Source of the DNA: a virus
UHGV virus genome: UHGV-0182401
Reading direction: 5' to 3' (one strand)
Length of the DNA: 40,878 bases
In this document: positions 32,286 to 40,878 of the stretch, piece after piece
How positions within the stretch are numbered: position 1 is the first letter of the stretch
How the letters are laid out: every line of letters starts with the position of its first letter
Notes under the pieces: model-generated
The model's input: only the letters and a program-made list of their open reading frames with translations
Told to the model about the DNA's origin: nothing
The model's database searches: none
Translations under genes and position numbers: made by a program

Positions 32286-33449
32286 TCACGCGATATTCAC
32301 CAGTTCAGCAAAAGCGCCTTGTGCCATATTTGTGCCATTCCCCGCCAGAAATGAGTCGATTTGCATGGCATGCTGCGTCAGGTGATTCGGTGCCAGATGG
32401 GCATAACGCTGTACCATCTCGATACTTTCCCACCCGCCCATTTCCTGTAGCGCACTGAGTGGCACGCCGGACTGTACAAGCCAGCTTGCCCAGGTGTGCC
32501 GCAGGTCATGGAAGCGGAAATTTTCTATTCCCGCCCGCCTTAACGCTGCTCGCCATGCCGTGTTAGCATCAGACCGCATTTTGCGCACTGCCTTTGTTCT
32601 CGTTCCATCCGGGCGAACGGATGATTCAGTGTGAACAAAGACCCACCGGTTATGTTTCCCCAGCTGCTCCCGCAGCACCTTACAGGCCGATTCGTTCAGG
32701 GCGACCCCAATCGCCCTTCCTGCTTTCGCGTCCTCGGGGTGAATCCACGCGACCTTCCTCTGCATATCAATTTGTGACCACTCCAGATCGGTGATGTTCG
32801 ACCTGCGCAGCCCCGTCGCCAGTGCAAAAATAACAACTGGCTTCATATGCTCGGGAAGTTCCCGGATCAGGTTCGCCGCTTCCTCTTTGGTTAGCCAGCG
32901 AATACGCTTATTTTTCGGCACCGGGCATTTGATGTTCGGCGCCTTGGCTATCCATCGCCATTCGTTGGCCGCACATCGTAACAGCGCCCGGATGAAAGCA
33001 AGGTGCGTCGCCTTCGTCGCCAGCGACGCTGGTTTATCCTTAAATTCAGGAACCGGCTTACCTCTTCGCAGCAGGCTGTCCCGTTTCGCCTCCCAGTTCA
33101 TTCGATGTTTGCGATTAACCATCGAACTCACCGCCGACAAGATCCTGTCTTCCGTGATTGCTGACAGGTCCATTCCTTTGAAGTGCATTCTCCAGAATCC
33201 GATCCGGCTTTTGTCATCGTCCAGGCTTTTCTTGTGCTGCTTTTCGTTAAGCCAGCGAACGCACGCTTCATCGAACGTTCTCGGCTTAAACTCACCCATC
33301 TTATCAACTCGCCATGCTTCAGCTTTCAGCTGATCATAGAGCTCCTGCGCTTGCCTTTTGTCCGTTGTCCCAAGAGACCGTCTAATTCGACTTCCACCAG
33401 GCGTAACGAAGTCGCAGTGCCACGTACCGGCACGTTGTTTGATTGACAT
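32286..33449 (-). CDS. int: Tyrosine integrase
   Basis: 387 aa; N-terminus resembles remembered P22 Int; C-terminal HDLRHTWAS...Y catalytic region. Confidence 0.9.
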
Positions 33450-33673
33450 GCTTTAACCTCCTGCACATCAACCGCATTCACCGCGCTATTGTGTCTCACA
33501 GACTTAAGCGCCGCAATGCAGTCTGACTTGCAAATGCGATATGGGCTTTTAGGTTTATCTGGATTTATCTTTGCGGCCTGAAGTCGTCCACTTCGTATCC
33601 ACTGCGTGATAGTGCCTTTGTCTACCTTCAGATACGATGCTGCCTCTTCACGAGTGAAGATTTCTTCTTCCAC
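33326..33673 (-). CDS. xis: Excisionase-like helix-turn-helix protein
   Basis: [22 protein letters not shown] helix-turn-helix; directly upstream of and overlapping int. Confidence 0.55.
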
Positions 33674-33760
33674 TTGGAATCTCCATTTATTGAGTTGGTA
33701 TTATTGCGGTAGGTCTGGATATCTTGAGAAATGAACAGGCCTCATCGAGTGTGAGGCGGG

Positions 33761-34105
33761 TTAGTCCTTGCGTAGCTCGCTAATTCTTCTGTAAGTCTCT
33801 GGTGCTTTGTTTCCGTGTATCTTCATTTCAGACTTCAACAGAGCAACGAGGGAATCCCATTCGTTGAGGATGCCTTTGAATGCCGGAACGCGCTTTGCAA
33901 CCTTGTTGAATGAATCTCTGATTTCTGGAATCTGCTCAACAAGTGCAACGCATCGCCGAAAGTCTGCTGCGTCATGGGGAGCACCGAAGTAATGACCATA
34001 GATATTCTTTTTCAGTCCACATGCGATTGAGGCAAGAGTTGCGCTACTGATGCCAACATCGCCAGTCGATTGCCATTTCAAAACCTTCATAGCCAAATCT
34101 GACAT
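33761..34105 (-). CDS. Hypothetical protein (114 aa)
   Basis: Start placed at the internal ATG (MSDLAMK) because the track start codon lies inside a terminator hairpin; GGAGACAAG upstream. Confidence 0.5.
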   Translation of the reverse strand: MSDLAMKVLKWQSTGDVGISSATLASIACGLKKNIYGHYFGAPHDAADFRRCVALVEQIPEIRDSFNKVAKRVPAFKGILNEWDSLVALLKSEMKIHGNKAPETYRRISELRKD

Positions 34106-34116
34106 TTCTTGTCTCC

Positions 34117-34140
34117 AATAAAAAACCGCCATCAGGCGGC
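34117..34140 (-). terminator. Intrinsic terminator within the leftward early operon
   Basis: CCGCC-loop-GGCGG hairpin followed by TTTTTTATT on the minus strand, directly upstream of the next start codon. Confidence 0.5.
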
Positions 34141-34205
34141 TTGGTGTTCTTTCAGTTATTCAATTCGAATATTGGTTACATTGTTTTCATATATGAATAA
34201 ATAAA

Positions 34206-34385
34206 TTAGCTTTTTTCGTTGCCTTCGCTTTCTTTATTAATTTTAACAAACTCGTTTTTACCACGCTCTCCAAATGCGTCTTTAGAGTCGTTGTATCCGC
34301 AATCGCAGCACACATAATCTCCAGACCATCCACGCATTGTTTTTTCTTTTGCAATATTTCCAGAACCGCATTTTGGACAAGACAT
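34206..34385 (-). CDS. Small zinc-ribbon protein (59 aa)
   Basis: CPKCGSG...CCDCGYND, two CxxC pairs; GGAGG ribosome-binding site. Confidence 0.5.
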   Translation of the reverse strand: MSCPKCGSGNIAKEKTMRGWSGDYVCCDCGYNDSKDAFGERGKNEFVKINKESEGNEKS

Positions 34386-34481
34386 ATCACTACCTCCAAA
34401 GCATGAGTGAGATGACAACGTAACATTGATTGGAGATTAACAATAGATTGCTGATGTAAAAGATATGTATAAGCTTCGCTT

Positions 34482-35048
34482 TCAAAGTGGAGGCTCTGGT
34501 AGCGGCATCCAGTGAGTTACGTCATCCAAGATATTTCCTGATAAATACGTGAAAGCTCTATATTTTTTGTAATCAATTGGATTTACAACCCAGTTCCAAT
34601 ATGCGGCCACGATTTCACCTTGACTAAATGCCAGTAACATTTTGGTTTCTTCCGGCATTCGCTCACTACAGCTTATCCAACCATCCGGAGTTACCGGAGA
34701 GTTGCCCGATAGCTCGTTCAACTTGTAAGTTTGGCTTACGAGTTCGGCTTCCAGTTCTGCTATGCGCTTTTTTGCTGCTTCCAGCTCGCCAAGCAGCGCC
34801 AAGACGGTAGCCGGATTGGCTGCAGCGATGAATTCAGCATTGGCCTGCTGTTCCATTTGGAAATCTTCATCGAAACCGCTTTCAGGATGCGCTCCTTCAA
34901 TTCTGCAAATGGGAAGATATCCAACAACGTCACGATGAATTAGCGCATCATCACAATCAAATCGGCTCTCTCCATATTCGAGCGACCACACCCCACACGT
35001 TGCTTTCTCTGCCGCTTCACGCAGTGCCTGATAGTCAATCTTGCTCAT
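34482..35048 (-). CDS. Ead/Ea22-like protein with C-terminal DUF551-like region
   Basis: 188 aa; C-terminal WISCSERMPEE...THWMPLPEPP resembles DUF551. Confidence 0.55.
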   Translation of the reverse strand: MSKIDYQALREAAEKATCGVWSLEYGESRFDCDDALIHRDVVGYLPICRIEGAHPESGFDEDFQMEQQANAEFIAAANPATVLALLGELEAAKKRIAELEAELVSQTYKLNELSGNSPVTPDGWISCSERMPEETKMLLAFSQGEIVAAYWNWVVNPIDYKKYRAFTYLSGNILDDVTHWMPLPEPPL

Positions 35049-35049
35049 G

Positions 35050-35349
35050 TCACATCACCCTGAATCCGTTGCATTTACGTAAGAAATCGCAGATATAGCC
35101 CTTCATTTTTTCATGCCAATCTCGATCATTCCCATTGCACCACCCATCAGGTGGAGTCCAGTTTTCTATCAGAGCAGCCATTTTCTTTGCTTTCGCCGGA
35201 GTAGCTGTTGCGGTATCGCAGTAATGACGAGTGTCAACAAACTTATCCATGCCATCGATATCAAGTACGCAAAACCATGTGTGATTCGGAATTCCTACAG
35301 GTGGTATTTGTTGCCCACGTCGGCGTTTATCAATGAGATATACACTCAC
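35050..35349 (-). CDS. Hypothetical protein (99 aa)
   Basis: Translationally coupled to its neighbours on both sides. Confidence 0.45.
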   Translation of the reverse strand: MSVYLIDKRRRGQQIPPVGIPNHTWFCVLDIDGMDKFVDTRHYCDTATATPAKAKKMAALIENWTPPDGWCNGNDRDWHEKMKGYICDFLRKCNGFRVM

Positions 35350-35795
35350 TGGTTACCTCCTTTGCGAAGCTCTGCGGCGAACTCGTTAAGTGATATGTAG
35401 CAATCTCCAAATGTTAACGAACCGCTCGACTGCATATGCTCCATAGCCATCTCCACGCCCTGCGCCCGTACTTCAGCCAGGAAAGCATCGGTGGCTGGGG
35501 TTTCAGTAACATCATCTTCCCATTCGCTAAACTCCTCACGACAAAAGTCATTAAATTCCTTCTCAGATTGCTTAAGCGAGGTATTTTCAGCAGCCATCTT
35601 CGCGCATTTAGCCTCAAGGTTATCAATCGTGATTCCAGCAGAACGACACTCCCGCAACGCCGTTTCTAGTTTTGATTCAAGTTCACCGAACTTACGCACC
35701 AGATATTCAGCGTTTGTTTCGTTAACCTTTAAATCTCGGGGGATGCATTTACCTTTCAGAAAACCATCCATCTCAATTAGTGACATTTGTTTCAT
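35346..35795 (-). CDS. Hypothetical protein (about 149 aa)
   Basis: Start chosen at the ATG after GGAG; the track start is a GTG 18 nt upstream. Confidence 0.45.
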   Translation of the reverse strand: MKQMSLIEMDGFLKGKCIPRDLKVNETNAEYLVRKFGELESKLETALRECRSAGITIDNLEAKCAKMAAENTSLKQSEKEFNDFCREEFSEWEDDVTETPATDAFLAEVRAQGVEMAMEHMQSSGSLTFGDCYISLNEFAAELRKGGNQ

Positions 35796-35951
35796 TTCTT
35801 CCCACTCCGCCACATTGCATTCAGATATTTGTTGTCATTAACAGAACCGAAATATTTCTCTTAAGCAATTCCTCTCTCGATGGCATTGGCTTTACGCGTT
35901 GGCGAATAATCATTTCTGCCGGAAGAATGCCGGGATTGTATGCAAGTCCTC

Positions 35952-36242
35952 TCATGATTTACTCTCCACGAACTGGTCAACGGCCATGCTAAGTGACACA
36001 CCTAAAGTATCGATATGCTGCTGAATATCCTGTAGCGTCCGCGCTTGAGATAACAGAATTTCACGGTTGCATAACTCTTTAACCAGATGCTCAAACTTGC
36101 TGTAATAACCGATACGGCTTAGTGTTTCTTTCCCTGCATTCTCACCTTCTTTGATAATTCCTCTTTCGCTAAGAATCAGGTCGTGTTTGGTTCCGGTAAT
36201 AACGTATTTGCCGAGGTCGATGTTTAGCTTCATTGTTTTCAT
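35952..36242 (-). CDS. Hypothetical protein (97 aa)
   Basis: Start at ATG ([10 protein letters not shown]) after GAGGA; the track ORF extends upstream from a TTG into the preceding gene. Confidence 0.45.
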
Positions 36243-36252
36243 TGTTAATTCC

Positions 36253-36549
36253 TCAGTCATTACTGATAGCGCCATAGCGTGAGCGGTAATTACGCAGGCG
36301 CGGGTCGATATATTCAGGGAAGTGGGTATATGTGGCTTTGCGGAATGGTCGGATTGATGTCTGGTAAATTCGCTCTCGTTCTTCTTTCTCTGCAAGCCAT
36401 ATACAGTGGCGAAATTCCTTTTCTTCTTTCGTTTCCTGCGGTAGCGACATTATCCGGTCGTAGTTTTTCCTGAATTTATCCAGCACCTCCGATACGGAAT
36501 TGCCGGAACAGCGGCGCGCGTCGTCCGCACCATACAGAGGCGCTGGCAT
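36253..36549 (-). CDS. Hypothetical protein (98 aa)
   Basis: ORF with ATG start; first gene after ssb in the leftward operon. Confidence 0.45.
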   Translation of the reverse strand: MPAPLYGADDARRCSGNSVSEVLDKFRKNYDRIMSLPQETKEEKEFRHCIWLAEKEERERIYQTSIRPFRKATYTHFPEYIDPRLRNYRSRYGAISND

Positions 36550-36562
36550 GATTTTCTCCTGA

Positions 36563-37078
36563 TTAAATTGCGTGAATAGCGTGACGAGGGAAGGGGAGGG
36601 TTACTGGCGCAAAAGGTATATCGTCGTCAAACTCCATAGGTGGTTCGCTGTGATTTACCTGCTTCTGAGGCTGCTGTTTTTGTTGCTGACCGTTATTTCG
36701 CTGAGGTGAAGACTGTTCATTGCTTCCTTGCTTGCCACCAAGCATTTGCATGGTTCCACCAACGCCCACGATAACTTCGGTAGTGAACCGATCCTGTCCG
36801 CTTTGATCCTGCCATTTTCTTGTCCGCAATTTTCCTTCAAGATAAACCTCAGAGCCTTTTCGCAGATATTCGCTGGCAATTTCTGCCAGTTTCCCGCTCA
36901 TTACCACACGGTGCCACTCCGTCTGCTCCTTTTGCTCTCCAGTTTGCTTATCACGCCATTGTTCTGACGTAGCAACTATAAGGTTTGCAAATGCCGTTCC
37001 TGATGGTGAATATCTGATTTCTGGATCATGCCCAAGGCGACCAATAATGATCACCTTATTTACGCCTCTACTTCCCAT
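36563..37078 (-). CDS. ssb: Single-stranded DNA-binding protein, with a 15-aa extension beyond the canonical DDDIPF tail
   Basis: OB-fold N-terminus typical of SSB and acidic [11 protein letters not shown] near the C-terminus, followed in frame by [15 protein letters not shown] before the stop. Confidence 0.85.
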
Positions 37079-37786
37079 TTATGCCGCCTGTTTTAGTTCG
37101 TTAACTCTGATGTTCATTACCTGAACGCATTTAGCCTGCGCATCCTCATTGCCAGCCATTAATTGCCAGTCATGCTGATAACGTTCTATGAGTTTTTTCT
37201 TGTCAGTTTCTGTTGATGCATAATCGCTGAAGTCTTTCAGGATTTGTTCGCAGTCAACCGATGGAGATTTCTGGTTGGTATTTTCTGGTGATGGTTTGTT
37301 ATCTGATGCTGGGATTGCCCAGCCCGGCAGCGATGGAGGGAGCCAGTAAAATCCTGTTCCATCCTTCAGTTTTGCCCTGTGCCACCCCTGTTTTTTATCG
37401 GGAGATGTTTGTGCGAAACCTTCCTCAAGGTTATACAGATACCGACCGATTCCCCACTGAACGGCAGCGCGCTTCATTGCACCGGAACGACCACCTTTGA
37501 CGGCTTCTACCTGCGTGTTTTCAGCAGCATCCCATTTGGTTACCCATTCGGAATCAATCTTTATTGATATGCCGCATTCAACGCCGCCGTTGTTGGGAAT
37601 ATCGCGGTATTCATTGCGCCATCCTGCTTTGCCACAAACATCGTCAAGGCGTTTCATGATTGCCCGGTTCGTAACATAAGCCAGCACCATAGCCCACACC
37701 TTGCCATCGCGTGTTTTACCGCTTTGCTGTATTCGCCATTCGATATCTTCAGGGCAGAATGGCTCATCGAATTTGTTCAAATCCAT
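37079..37786 (-). CDS. Single-strand annealing recombinase (Rad52/Sak-like)
   Basis: GAMKRAAVQWGIGRYLY motif typical of Rad52-like annealing proteins; paired with ssb. Confidence 0.65.
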   Translation of the reverse strand: MDLNKFDEPFCPEDIEWRIQQSGKTRDGKVWAMVLAYVTNRAIMKRLDDVCGKAGWRNEYRDIPNNGGVECGISIKIDSEWVTKWDAAENTQVEAVKGGRSGAMKRAAVQWGIGRYLYNLEEGFAQTSPDKKQGWHRAKLKDGTGFYWLPPSLPGWAIPASDNKPSPENTNQKSPSVDCEQILKDFSDYASTETDKKKLIERYQHDWQLMAGNEDAQAKCVQVMNIRVNELKQAA

Positions 37787-37873
37787 AATTCACCTCAGAA
37801 TGGACATGGCCCAAGGAAATAACGCTGGTTTAATACTTCGACTCGGGACAAATTAAGGCATACCCGCATTCCT

Positions 37874-38044
37874 TCGCGGTCACCATTATGGCGATACCAG
37901 AGAGCTTTCTGCGTGTACATGCGTCTCTGTAACTTGCTCTCCTTCACTGTGGTTGCAAGTGACATGAATATCTCCTTCGTTACCGATTAATTCTTTCATC
38001 TGACGAATGAATTCTTCGTCTGACCAGTTATCTGTAAAACTCAT
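37874..38044 (-). CDS. Small hypothetical protein (56 aa), coupled to the kil-like gene
   Basis: ATGA overlap with the kil-like stop. An alternative 58-aa ORF in another frame with an AAGGAG site overlaps it, so the frame choice is uncertain. Confidence 0.3.
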
Positions 38045-38193
38045 TTCCTGCGATACCACGGAATGTTGATCGCTGATTTCATCGCTTTATTTGCTTCAAG
38101 CCACATTTTGGAATCACCAATAAATCTGGCTATTACTGCTTTGTTCTGTGCAGCACGAAGCATCTGGTGATTGATGGCTATTTCATTGCGCAT
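38041..38193 (-). CDS. kil: Kil-like small protein (50 aa)
   Basis: GGAGG ribosome-binding site; FIGDSKMW resembles my (uncertain) recollection of lambda Kil; position between cIII-like gene and the recombination genes matches lambda order. Confidence 0.45.
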   Translation of the reverse strand: MRNEIAINHQMLRAAQNKAVIARFIGDSKMWLEANKAMKSAINIPWYRRK

Positions 38194-38312
38194 AACGCCT
38201 CCAGTTGTTTCTTTGCTGCTCTGATTAATTGTTTAACTCGGCGTGATAATTCAGATTCGTGCGGGTAGAAAGCGGACATGACGCCGCTACCCGCGAGCTG
38301 AAAGTGCATCAT
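38178..38312 (-). CDS. cIII: CIII-like small protein (44 aa)
   Basis: AAGGAG site; ESELSRRVKQLIRAAKKQL resembles the lambda CIII central helix. Below the ORF-track cutoff. Confidence 0.5.
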   Translation of the reverse strand: MMHFQLAGSGVMSAFYPHESELSRRVKQLIRAAKKQLEALCAMK

Positions 38313-38395
38313 GGGTAACTCCTTATATTTGATTGCATAACGAAAACGCCTCGAGTGAAGCGTTATTGGTATGCGGTAAAGCCGCGCTCAGGCGG

Positions 38396-38644
38396 CTACT
38401 CTATTTCTTCTTCGAATGATTTTATTAGTCGGTCAATAACATCATCCGTTTCAATATCATTTCCGTCTGATTGCTTTAATACATCTATTGATTCTGCAGC
38501 GGTAAATTCCATCGCTGTGAGAAACTCGACAATTGCACACTCAACGACATATCGTTCTTCATCTGTACGACATGAGATAAAAGAGCATTTAATTGCTGTT
38601 ATTACTTTTTGTTTAAGCTCTGCAGGGTAATCAGTTTTTATCAT
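38396..38644 (-). CDS. Small acidic hypothetical protein (82 aa)
   Basis: ORF with GGAG site, preceded by a terminator hairpin. Confidence 0.45.
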   Translation of the reverse strand: MIKTDYPAELKQKVITAIKCSFISCRTDEERYVVECAIVEFLTAMEFTAAESIDVLKQSDGNDIETDDVIDRLIKSFEEEIE

Positions 38645-38657
38645 CGTTTACTCCGTC

Positions 38658-38686
38658 AAAAAAATTGCCCTCACATTAGAGGGCAA
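38658..38686 (-). terminator. Intrinsic terminator within the leftward early operon
   Basis: TTGCCCTC-ACATTA-GAGGGCAA hairpin followed by TTTTTTT on the minus strand, directly upstream of a gene start. Confidence 0.5.
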
Positions 38687-39050
38687 AGAAGATTTCCAAT
38701 AATCAGAACAAGTCGGCTCCTGTTTAGTTACGAGCGACATTGCTCCGTGTATTCACTCGTTGGAATGAATACACAGTGCTGTGTTTATTCTGTTATTTAT
38801 GCCAAAAATAAAGGCCACTATCAGGCAGCTTTGTTGTTCTATTAACCAAGTTCTCTGGCAATCATTGCCGTCGTTCGTATTGCCCACACCATTGATTCTT
38901 ATCAATAGTCGTAGTCATACGGATAGTCCTGGTATTGTTCCATCACATCCTGCGGATGCTCTTCGAACTCTTCAAATTCTTCTTCCATATCTCACCTCAA
39001 ATAAGTGGTTTGCTGCCAAAACAATGAACCATCCGGAAATTCCAGATAGT

Positions 39051-39278
39051 TCATAATTCACTCTTCAATACTTCCAACTTACTAATCGCCGATAGATATC
39101 CGCGCTGATAGGGCATCATCATTCCTTCGAGCTTGCCACTTCTTAACTCCTCCCTGAGCAATTGTATTGCTTGATCAATAACCTCTGCCTTAGCGTCCTT
39201 TATGGCTTGCTTGCGGGGCTTTGCTTTCTGCTTTGGCAGATTTCTCAAGCATGATGGAATGTATGTCTGATTCATCAC
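39051..39278 (-). CDS. Hypothetical early protein (75 aa)
   Basis: Immediately downstream of the N-like gene. Confidence 0.45.
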   Translation of the reverse strand: MMNQTYIPSCLRNLPKQKAKPRKQAIKDAKAEVIDQAIQLLREELRSGKLEGMMMPYQRGYLSAISKLEVLKSEL

Positions 39279-39551
39279 TTACCTGGCTGTCAGTTGTTTT
39301 GATTTCCGGTAGCCTGCCGAGTAAATGGCTACGTTTGGCAGGCAAATACTTCCACTGCATTCTTCTGCCTTCTTGCAGCGAAGGCTTCCTAGTGATGCTG
39401 CTTTATCTGCTCTGACGCAACCAGAGAGCTTTAGCGCAATTTTTCGTGACAATCGCTGTTCTTGCATTGCCTGTTCACGTTGAGCCTGTCTGCGTGCTCT
39501 GCGGCGATTTCTGGCGTTATCGTCAGCCAGATATGTAATGACTACTGTCAT
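39279..39551 (-). CDS. N: N-like transcription antiterminator (P22 gp24-like)
   Basis: Arginine-rich motif NARNRRRARRQAQREQ; C-terminus YSAGYRKSKQLTAR resembles remembered P22 gp24; first gene after pL and nutL. Confidence 0.75.
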   Translation of the reverse strand: MTVVITYLADDNARNRRRARRQAQREQAMQEQRLSRKIALKLSGCVRADKAASLGSLRCKKAEECSGSICLPNVAIYSAGYRKSKQLTAR

Positions 39552-39657
39552 GTTGACCTCCGATGATTGACTTTGGCGGTGACGCGCCGGGTGCTTATCT
39601 TCCGGTTGCCGTCGTGCAGCTGCACTTCACGTCACCCCAAAGCCAACTACTCTTTGG

Positions 39658-39700
39658 TTCCCGCATTTCGGCGGGACAATCCCATCAATGTTAAAGAGCC
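39658..39700 (-). promoter_or_regulatory. nutL: boxA (GCTCTTTAACA) plus boxB hairpin
   Basis: On the minus strand, boxA at 39689-39699 followed 11 nt later by the same TCCCGCCGAAATGCGGGA hairpin seen in nutR. Confidence 0.6.
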
Positions 39701-39745
39701 TGCCAATCTGTTCCGTTTGGCTACCAGCTTCCTGCTGATGGCTAG

Positions 39746-39774
39746 ATAATCACAAATTGTGGTCGTACTGTCAA
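39746..39774 (-). promoter_or_regulatory. Candidate pL promoter (TTGACA-N17-GATTAT) with overlapping operator-like palindrome
   Basis: Consensus -35 and reasonable -10 on the minus strand; palindrome CACAAATTGTG at 39751-39761 in the spacer. Confidence 0.45.
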
Positions 39775-39846
39775 CACGAAATGTGATTGTTTTTATCACA
39801 ACCCGTGTTTACATTGATTTTAAAGGTAATTTAATTTTCTTTGGGC

Positions 39847-39871
39847 AACAAAAAACCCGCCGAAGCGGGTT
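39847..39871 (-). terminator. Intrinsic terminator downstream of cI
   Basis: AACCCGC-CGAA-GCGGGTT hairpin followed by a T-run on the minus strand, about 25 nt after the cI stop. Confidence 0.55.
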
Positions 39872-39895
39872 TGATGTTTTTAAGTGGCGGGTATA

Positions 39896-40537
39896 TCAGG
39901 AGAATTTCATCATCATCTGCACTGCTACGCCGATTATCTTGCAGTTGCCGTCGATTGGGATCAACGGATAGGCAGGGTTAAGCCCTTTCAGGTATTTGTT
40001 ACCGCCATCAATGATTAGCTTCTTGAACGTGGCTTCATTAGCATCTGTCAGCTTCGCAACTACCAGGCTTCCATTAACGGCTTCCTTTCCAGTGTCGAAC
40101 AGAACCAGCATACCCTCAGGAACGCTAAGGCCGGTAGGAGCTGTCATTGAGTCGCCCTGAACCCTGAGCCAGAAGGCGTCACCGACAACGTGACAATCTG
40201 ATTCATACCACTCATCCACTGCCTGAGGGTTGTACGGCTCTACGGCCTCACTCCATGCACCTGCGCTAACCCAGCTAATCAACGGAAACTTTTCCCCTGG
40301 CTTGTATTGTCCCTGATAGTTGTCGCCAAAAAGCAGTTCTGCCGGAGCGACACCCAAAGCTTTAGCTATTACCTCTGCGTCATCAACACTAACGCTTCTG
40401 GTTCCTGATTCATAGTTGCCGATCCGAGATTGTGAAGCCCAGCCGCAAAGCTCCGCAAGAGCCTTCTGTGTAAGCCCTTTATCTTCCCGTAATCGCTTGA
40501 TACGCGCGGCGATAGTTTCTGTTCTGTTCATGCGCAT
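39896..40537 (-). CDS. cI: CI-type repressor (helix-turn-helix plus LexA-like S24 autocleavage domain)
   Basis: 213 aa; C-terminal domain PLISWVSAG...VQGDSMTAP...CKIIGV closely resembles remembered P22 C2; divergent from cro. Confidence 0.9.
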   Translation of the reverse strand: MRMNRTETIAARIKRLREDKGLTQKALAELCGWASQSRIGNYESGTRSVSVDDAEVIAKALGVAPAELLFGDNYQGQYKPGEKFPLISWVSAGAWSEAVEPYNPQAVDEWYESDCHVVGDAFWLRVQGDSMTAPTGLSVPEGMLVLFDTGKEAVNGSLVVAKLTDANEATFKKLIIDGGNKYLKGLNPAYPLIPIDGNCKIIGVAVQMMMKFS

Positions 40538-40579
40538 TTTATATCACATTCCGTGGTTTAAGGCTTTACACGATTTGTG

Positions 40580-40608
40580 TTGACTATCAATCACAATGTG
40601 TGTTTAAT
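40580..40608 (+). promoter_or_regulatory. Candidate pR promoter (TTGACT-N17-TTTAAT) with operator-like palindromes
   Basis: In the cI-cro intergenic region; ACACGATTTGTGT and TCACAATGTGTG nearby. Confidence 0.45.
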
Positions 40609-40641
40609 AAAGACTGAGTGAACTAGCTCTTAAGGAAACCT

Positions 40642-40857
40642 ATGAACAACATTGCCAACGAACGGAAAAAGCTTGGCATCACTCAATCTGCGTTAGCAGG
40701 CGCGTGTGGCTGGAACCAGTCCCGCTTAGCTAACTACGAGTCAGGTATCCGGACTCCAGATTTAGAGTCGTGCCGTAGCCTGGTAAAGGCGCTGAATAAA
40801 TTGGGGAGCAAGACAACGCTAGATGGCTTGTTCCCGCCGCGTAAGAACGCCGCATAA
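40642..40857 (+). CDS. cro: Cro-like helix-turn-helix regulator
   Basis: 71 aa XRE-type helix-turn-helix (LGITQSALAGACGWNQSRLANYESG), divergent from cI. Confidence 0.7.
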   Translation: MNNIANERKKLGITQSALAGACGWNQSRLANYESGIRTPDLESCRSLVKALNKLGSKTTLDGLFPPRKNAA

Positions 40858-40863
40858 GCAAAT

Positions 40864-40875
40864 TGCTCTTTAACA
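40864..40875 (+). promoter_or_regulatory. nutR boxA (TGCTCTTTAACA)
   Basis: Matches the rrn-type boxA consensus as remembered; its boxB partner is at positions 11-30. Confidence 0.55.
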
Positions 40876-40878
40876 GTC

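Follow-up and report, generated by a model that had tools for sequence, protein, structure and literature searches.

What does the tightly packed block of minus-strand genes at positions 34482-36549 of the virus genome UHGV-0182401 encode, and do its genes act as a unit? The window analysed here is the whole stretch of 40,878 nucleotides (nt), which looks like a complete temperate phage genome, and the block lies in it between ssb and the xis and int genes. It is very probably the promoter-distal accessory part of the N-antiterminated PL operon of a lambdoid temperate phage, with six independent cassettes on one leftward transcript. The gene order, protein families, operon context and mosaic boundaries come from this analysis. 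The mechanism of Abc2 and the phenotype of Ea22 are taken from the literature, and PL transcription, translational coupling and a binding role of three DUF proteins are what we infer.

We number the genes 1–6 in the order of transcription, corresponding to minus-strand open reading frames (ORFs) of 98, 96, 44, 149, 99 and 188 amino acids (aa) (Table 1). The six ORFs are consecutive, and coding sequence makes up 98% of the block, with only 36 of 2068 nt non-coding. An earlier note on this DNA had described five minus-strand ORFs. Their position and strand hold, while the count is six, since the 44-aa ORF is recognised by its profile match as a real DUF2737 member. The sizes given as 98, about 149, 99 and 188 aa are correct, and the one given as 97 aa counts a stop codon, the actual length being 96 aa. 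An ORF of 45 aa at about 35818-35955, which had been listed as possible, turns out to be a real gene of 44 aa at 35821-35955 with a frameshifted tail.

The same note had called the genes co-directional and packed with overlapping or abutting stop and start codons, which the junctions bear out. Genes 2 and 3 overlap by ATGA and genes 4 and 5 by GTGA, while genes 5 and 6 are 1 nt apart. Spacers of 13 and 10 nt separate ssb from gene 1 and gene 1 from gene 2, respectively. Gene 3 is followed by 25 nt up to the ATG of gene 4, or by 7 nt up to a GTG at 35813. A Shine-Dalgarno-like motif is found at every one of the six starts, the weakest at gene 6. The signature of operon-type coupling, namely stop and start codons that overlap or adjoin and a ribosome-binding site in the upstream gene, is present, and the exception is the frameshift-made 25-nt gap.

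Because all six ORFs match curated families, antisense ORFs have no matches and the pairwise ratio of nonsynonymous to synonymous substitution rates (dN/dS) is 0.06–0.54, we conclude from these comparisons that the six are real genes and not chance ORFs. Pfam E-values range from 3e-19 to 4e-61, except for gene 2 at 7e-5, which is above the gathering score, and PHROG E-values from 1e-22 to 2e-61. None of the seven plus-strand ORFs of at least 60 aa in the block has a PHROG match. The dN/dS values, calculated against Sf6, HK620 and N7 from small counts, are below 1 for each gene where the ratio is calculable. Apart from gene 3, the genes reach the full length of their families and are conserved widely, and for five of the six genes the exact protein is known from public contigs, their number running from 12 to at least 1000. 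Sequence searches of the PDB with genes 2, 4, 5 and 6 gave no significant match, and NCBIfam and PADLOC scans of eight ORFs in or beside the block returned nothing relevant. An Rfam scan of the entire window gave no match, and a repeat search found only short pairs at chance level.

We place the block at the distal end of the PL operon because N, cIII, kil, erf and ssb lie upstream of it, and xis and int, behind a Zn-ribbon gene, lie downstream. The immunity genes cI and cro are found beyond N. Equivalents of the block are the 'ea' region in P22-like phages and the exo-xis region in lambda. Gene order and the biology of lambda and P22 suggest that leftward transcription from PL under N antitermination would include the block together with the recombination genes. 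The overlapping or abutting stop and start codons would then let ribosomes pass from gene to gene.

Comparison of the slot across Sf6, HK620, N7 and HK75 demonstrates gene-by-gene exchange, in agreement with the variable lambdoid accessory region that had been proposed to lie here between the recombination module (erf, ssb) and xis/int. The early-left regions of Sf6, HK620 (hkaG-hkaJ), N7 and HK75 have the same slot and orientation as the window. Sf6 matches positions 34750-35366 and 35808-36607 in BLAST searches, covering genes 1, 2, 3 and 5 and the head of gene 6, without gene 4. Its block genes (gp21-gp25: abc2, DUF5405, DUF2737, DUF7739, Ea22-like) show 95–96% nucleotide identity. HK620 and N7 match 35448-35956 and from 36239 on, which covers genes 1, 3 and 4, without genes 2 and 5. 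HK75 (gp27-gp30) carries abc2, DUF2737, the gp37-like gp28 and the DUF7739 gene gp27 in the order seen here, without DUF5405. The window therefore unites a gp37-like gene that is absent from Sf6 with a DUF5405 gene that is absent from HK620, N7 and HK75. It differs from these regions in its Ea22-like gene with a DUF551 tail and in the frameshift of its DUF2737 gene. Among phage records and complete E. coli genomes, none covers at least 80% of the 3-kb stretch searched; parts of this stretch are present in 3464 of 5426 E. coli genomes.

All BLAST breakpoints against Sf6, HK620 and N7 fall at gene junctions. About 18–20 nt at the start of gene 5 (...CGCAAAGGAGG...GTGA; 35345-35366) are constant though the upstream gene varies: the gene preceding DUF7739 is of the gene 4 type here and in HK75, and gp23 (DUF2737) in Sf6. 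This boundary spans the end of the upstream gene, a GGAGG ribosome-binding site and the GTGA start/stop overlap, and it looks like a short junction homology at which cassettes may be exchanged. In prophages of Serratia, Plesiomonas and Providencia, distant homologues of DUF7739 and DUF5405 are likewise found in this early-left slot, with different genes beside them. Because the gene content is mosaic and the same slot is shared with different neighbours, we regard the genes as independent cassettes and not as parts of one machine.

Gene 1 is by homology abc2. Its product matches Pfam PF11043 with residues 1-98 on profile positions 1-97 (E 4.1e-61, 203.6 bits, cutoff 25), the PHROG family phrog_656 'abc2 anti-RecBCD' (E 2.3e-56) and the P22 Abc2 structure 8b1t_A (E 1.8e-55; structures PDB 8B1T/8B1U), to which it is alike over the full length at ~90% identity. 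Pro68 is kept, placed by the motif ...SIRPFRK.... The exact protein occurs on at least 1000 contigs. Gene 1 lies directly downstream of the Erf-type annealing gene (Rad52_Rad22, E 5.6e-25) and ssb, and abc2, erf and ssb constitute a recombination module. Relative to the P22 map, the window has no evident separate abc1 or arf between erf and abc2, and ssb is located there instead.

In the cryo-EM structure of P22 Abc2 on RecBCD, Pro68 sits in the active site of host PpiB (PMC9836394). Abc2 binds RecC of host RecBCD, and the response to Chi is lost (PMC9836394); the same RecC binding and loss of Chi response are predicted for the gene 1 product. The place of Abc2 in lambdoid Rec modules has been described (PMC12315714), and the position of gene 1 directly after erf and ssb is that of the Erf-SSB-Abc2 type.

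Gene 6 had been described as Ea22-like with a DUF551-like tail, and both parts are confirmed by Pfam. Residues 2-102 match Ead_Ea22 (PF13935; E 1.7e-22, 80.9 bits, cutoff 27) and residues 123-187 match DUF551 (PF04448; E 2.3e-21, 76.8 bits, cutoff 22). An Ead_Ea22 region followed by a C-terminal DUF551 has been described in Stx phages as the 'Ea22 V2' architecture (PMC10834534), and gene 6 is assigned to it by its domain matches. It shares with Ea22 V2 of the lambda/Stx exo-xis region both the domain order and the slot between the recombination genes and xis. The lambda cassette of orf60a, orf63, orf61, orf73 and ea8.5 is not seen in the window. With 188 aa, the protein is shorter than many Ea22 members, such as Sf6 gp21 (226 aa) and HK620 hkaG (238 aa), and it occurs in exact form on 12 contigs. 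For the Ea22 family there is genetic evidence from lambda and Stx phages that it favours lysogeny (PMC10834534, PMC7093339).

Gene 4 belongs to the family of HK97 gp37, HK620 hkaH and HK75 gp28, which counts more than 7000 homologue clusters, and is 71% identical to HK75 gp28. Its 149 aa are the length annotated in databases; the GTG at 35813 would give 155 aa. The product is acidic, with an isoelectric point (pI) of 4.6, and probably forms a coiled coil. In addition to phrog_614 (E 2.1e-61), it matches phrog_368 (E 3.7e-22), which is also matched by gene 6. The N-terminal 84 aa are common to a 239-aa ead/Ea22-like protein (95%), and the C-terminal region is 62% identical to the same protein over 109 residues, with the last 50 near-identical. 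Because of these shared N- and C-terminal modules and the PHROG family in common with gene 6, we read gene 4 as a putative short relative of the Ea22-type modular proteins. We found no study testing the function of the gene 4 family.

Gene 3 corresponds to Sf6 gp23, HK620 hkaI and HK97 gp38. It matches DUF2737 (PF10930; E 3.4e-19) on profile positions 1-34 of 53 only and does not extend over the whole profile of ~53 positions. The DNA alignment with HK620, N7 and Sf6 shows the loss of 1 nt between 35852 and 35853. Up to codon 34 the gene hardly differs from its counterparts in the three phages, the last 10 codons are changed and ~10 more are lost, leaving 44 aa in place of 54–60. The frameshift also abolishes the ATGA overlap with gene 4 that HK620 and N7 have. 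The gene is best described, from its conserved part, as a truncated but true member of DUF2737. Public data contain the exact 44-aa protein only once (one Caudoviricetes entry, a third-party annotation (TPA) of a metagenome-assembled genome (MAG), in a 15-billion-protein collection), so that the deletion is a mutation private to this genome or else an error of the assembly. The tL3 terminator annotated inside hkaI of HK620 has no detectable counterpart in the block. In the literature on DUF2737 we found one incidental mention only.

Gene 2, equivalent to Sf6 gp24, matches DUF5405 (PF17399) with 23.7 bits at a cutoff of 21.6 (E 7e-5). Most homologues begin 3 codons later, at 36233. The match to phrog_154 is stronger (E 1.1e-31) and bears the PHROG label 'replication initiation protein', for which we found no experimental basis. 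By tblastn, gene 2 aligns to positions 27769-28035 of P2 (33% identity over 92% of the length, E 9e-9), annotated as Orf83/DUF5405 and named 'DUF5405 family protein' in RefSeq. Both are early-operon genes of ~90 aa in temperate enterobacterial phages. They differ in phage type and neighbours: P2 Orf83 lies after the DksA/TraR-like Orf82, directly upstream of and overlapping the replication gene A (nickase). The AlphaFold2 model of gene 2 is confident, with a predicted local distance difference test (pLDDT) score of 89.5, and has no convincing fold match. P2-like phages carry DUF5405 homologues throughout, and such homologues are also found in Salmonella phages of 72 kb and in a single Pseudomonas phage. 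No mention of DUF5405 by name or Pfam accession was found in the literature, and nothing functional was found on P2 orf81-83.

Gene 5, equivalent to Sf6 gp22 and HK75 gp27, matches DUF7739 (PF24881; 68.4 bits, cutoff 27) with residues 3-93 on profile positions 3-92 of 98 and keeps the RR, TW, AKKM, PPxGW and CNGF motifs of the family. A profile search of 1.84 billion representatives yielded 72 proteins, nearly all of them stand-alone and of ~95 aa. Longer matches were considered as domain fusions and rejected, as they stem from chimeric gene calls or from matches of low complexity (lambda P, YopX, zinc fingers). The DUF7739 and DUF5405 genes both move between unrelated temperate phage lineages, and DUF7739 homologues with 36–41% identity are present both in phages of ~35 kb and in larger ones of ~95 kb, the usual size of P1-like phages. 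A literature search by name or Pfam accession found no mention of DUF7739.

The AlphaFold2 model of gene 5 is confident as well (pLDDT 85.8). Foldseek gave no PDB match for it, the best probability being 0.08. A tentative resemblance of the model to Neisseria DMP12, a CdiI immunity protein (5J4A) and E. coli YfbM is confined to the fold, with a sequence identity of 9–11%. Permissive Pfam scans and a whole-library profile search revealed no link of DUF7739 to DMP12, CdiI or YfbM, and we treat the resemblance of the predicted fold as a weak lead. The charge speaks against a DNA-mimic function after that of DMP12: with a pI of 8.65 and a net charge of +2.7 at pH 7, the gene 5 product is slightly basic and lacks an acidic, DNA-like surface.

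How would these proteins serve the phage? Abc2 bound to RecC would render RecBCD deaf to Chi and so support Erf-mediated phage recombination. By analogy with its relatives, gene 6 may act as an Ea22-type oligomer, perhaps a coiled-coil tetramer, with a swappable DUF551 domain that biases the decision to lysogeny, and gene 4 perhaps does so too. Genes 2, 3 and 5 would be small non-enzymatic proteins that most probably act early in infection, through binding to a protein of the host or of the phage. Four points weigh against this account of an accessory operon. The binding role of the three DUF proteins is one that we infer from small size, genomic position and the lack of catalytic motifs. The prolysogenic effect of gene 6 is carried over from lambda and Stx-phage proteins, as opposed to this variant. 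The frameshift of gene 3 removes the ATGA overlap, so that coupling is not uniform along the block. A promoter and terminator scan, uninformative in this region, gave zero minus-strand sites within 34482-36549.

It is possible, if at a low likelihood, that the block is in addition an anti-defence island, in which at least one of the DUF5405, DUF7739, gp37-like and DUF2737 proteins inhibits host immunity or a competing phage and clusters with Abc2. Such a role would add to the accessory-operon explanation, does not compete with it and is reasonable for this slot. The slot is hypervariable, and DUF7739 and DUF5405 cross lambdoid, P2-like, P1-sized and other temperate phages. Abc2-containing accessory regions were anchors in an accessory-gene screen, in which the neighbouring abc1 of P22 triggered a P4-encoded abortive response (bioRxiv 10.1101/2023.04.06.535777). 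However, nothing specific in favour was found here: the literature searched mentions neither DUF5405 nor DUF7739 and names DUF2737 once, and DUF7739 is not acidic, has no Foldseek match in the PDB and gave no informative domain fusions in the profile search. No PADLOC model matches the ORFs of the block either, an outcome to be expected, as the PADLOC models hold defence systems and not counter-defence proteins. The more specific proposal that at least one of DUF7739 and DUF5405 is a novel inhibitor which binds a host protein of nucleic-acid handling or immunity, and which several unrelated temperate enterobacterial phage types carry, appears rather unlikely.

The position of genes 2–5 immediately downstream of erf, ssb and abc2 could also mean that they serve as accessory factors of Erf, SSB and Abc2, the role generally proposed for Arf and Abc1 of P22. 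P2 Orf83, which overlaps the replication gene A from directly upstream, and the replication label of phrog_154 point in the same direction. We nevertheless consider an extended recombination module quite improbable, because in HK620, N7, HK75 and Sf6 the presence or absence of these genes does not track that of erf, ssb and abc2. The Providencia and Plesiomonas homologues stand beside other recombination genes (YqaJ-type, RdgC) or none, the label lacks an experimental basis that we could find, and Pfam and NCBIfam scans found no nucleic-acid-binding or enzymatic domains. It is very improbable that some of the short ORFs, especially the 44-aa gene 3, are non-functional, as chance ORFs or decaying remnants. 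In favour of this, the 1-nt deletion has cost gene 3 the final third of the DUF2737 profile, and the exact gene 3 sequence is known from a single public contig. Against this stand its strong profile score and 34 essentially unchanged codons, and the deletion itself could be an assembly error. For the other ORFs, full length and family-wide conservation refute such a reading. The accessory part of the PL operon, made of independent cassettes, is the explanation that we retain.

The claim that none of the block's genes can be confidently assigned is wrong for the 98-aa ORF, which is assigned to Abc2, and overstated for the Ea22 V2 gene, while it holds for four families in the sense that they have no tested function. 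Homology to a characterised phage protein, which the earlier note had taken to speak against its reading, was found for gene 1 alone. Profile searches named the families of all six genes, while the models of DUF5405 and DUF7739 gave no convincing fold match. The region is of an ordinary, already known kind, and every gene family in it is already represented in public databases. New here are only the combination of cassettes and the private frameshift, both trivial. For two of the six genes, functional or structural studies have been published. The block illustrates cleanly how cassettes are exchanged one by one, with gene junctions as the borders, and has little weight as a discovery. The abundant and presumably early-expressed DUF5405, DUF7739, HK97 gp37-like, DUF2737 and DUF551 proteins are candidates for anti-defence, toxicity and lysogeny-decision screens.

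Table 1 Genes of the block, in order of transcription, and features around it in the window.
Feature	Positions	Strand	Details
Gene 1, abc2 (anti-RecBCD protein 2)	36253-36549	-	98 aa, ATG
Gene 2, DUF5405 protein	35952-36242	-	96 aa, ATG; or 93 aa from ATG at 36233
Gene 3, DUF2737 protein, frameshifted C-terminus	35821-35955	-	44 aa, ATG
Gene 4, acidic, probably coiled-coil, HK97 gp37-like protein	35346-35795	-	149 aa, ATG
Gene 5, DUF7739 protein	35050-35349	-	99 aa, GTG start
Gene 6, Ead/Ea22-like protein, DUF551 C-terminal domain	34482-35048	-	188 aa, ATG
cro	40642-40857		
cI	39896-40537		
N antiterminator	39279-39551	-	Pfam N_peptide E 2.3e-15
cIII	38178-38312	-	Pfam cIII E 2e-30
kil	38041-38193	-	Pfam Lambda_Kil E 1.7e-20
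erf / Rad52-type annealing protein	37079-37786	-	Pfam Rad52_Rad22 E 5.6e-25
ssb	36563-37078	-	Pfam SSB E 1.4e-37; ~96% nucleotide identity to Sf6 ssb
Zn-ribbon 'Eag' ORF	34206-34385	-	59 aa, CxxC...CxxC
123-aa ORF	33761-34132	-	phrog_1229
xis-like helix-turn-helix protein	33326-33673	-	
Integrase	32286-33449	-	

Downstream of gene 6, positions 34116-34514 are 99.5% identical in DNA to the hkaD region of HK620, where hkaD is annotated as 'Eag protein'. The Zn-ribbon ORF located there has a sub-threshold match to the Lar restriction-alleviation family (23.1 bits, cutoff 28.6). A TTG start at 34418 adds 11 residues to it and fits the PHROG profile better. Between the Zn-ribbon gene and the 123-aa ORF, the minus strand contains a terminator-like hairpin at 34123-34142, with 8 pairs (5 GC) followed by TTTTATT, which overlaps the first ATG (34132) of the 123-aa ORF. 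Because the PHROG alignment of this ORF begins at residue 10, its true start may be the ATG at 34105, which would make the hairpin intergenic.

Two overlapping minus-strand ORFs of 56–57 aa lie at 37795-38059 (37795-37965 and 37886-38059), between erf and kil, in the slot of HK75 gp33. A 2026 preprint reports activation of the P2 OLD abortive system by HK75 gp33. We considered the 56-aa ORF at 37795-37965 as a counterpart of gp33 and rejected it, as the two have no similarity. The window as a whole has a hybrid make-up: positions 32286-40878 hold a P22/Sf6/HK75-type early-left region with the immunity genes, and positions 11000-32100 hold the structural genes of a contractile-tail phage (myovirus). 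The closest relatives of the structural genes are Citrobacter phage Omnitron (77% coverage, 92% identity), Salmonella phage SEN34 and vB_EcoM phages.

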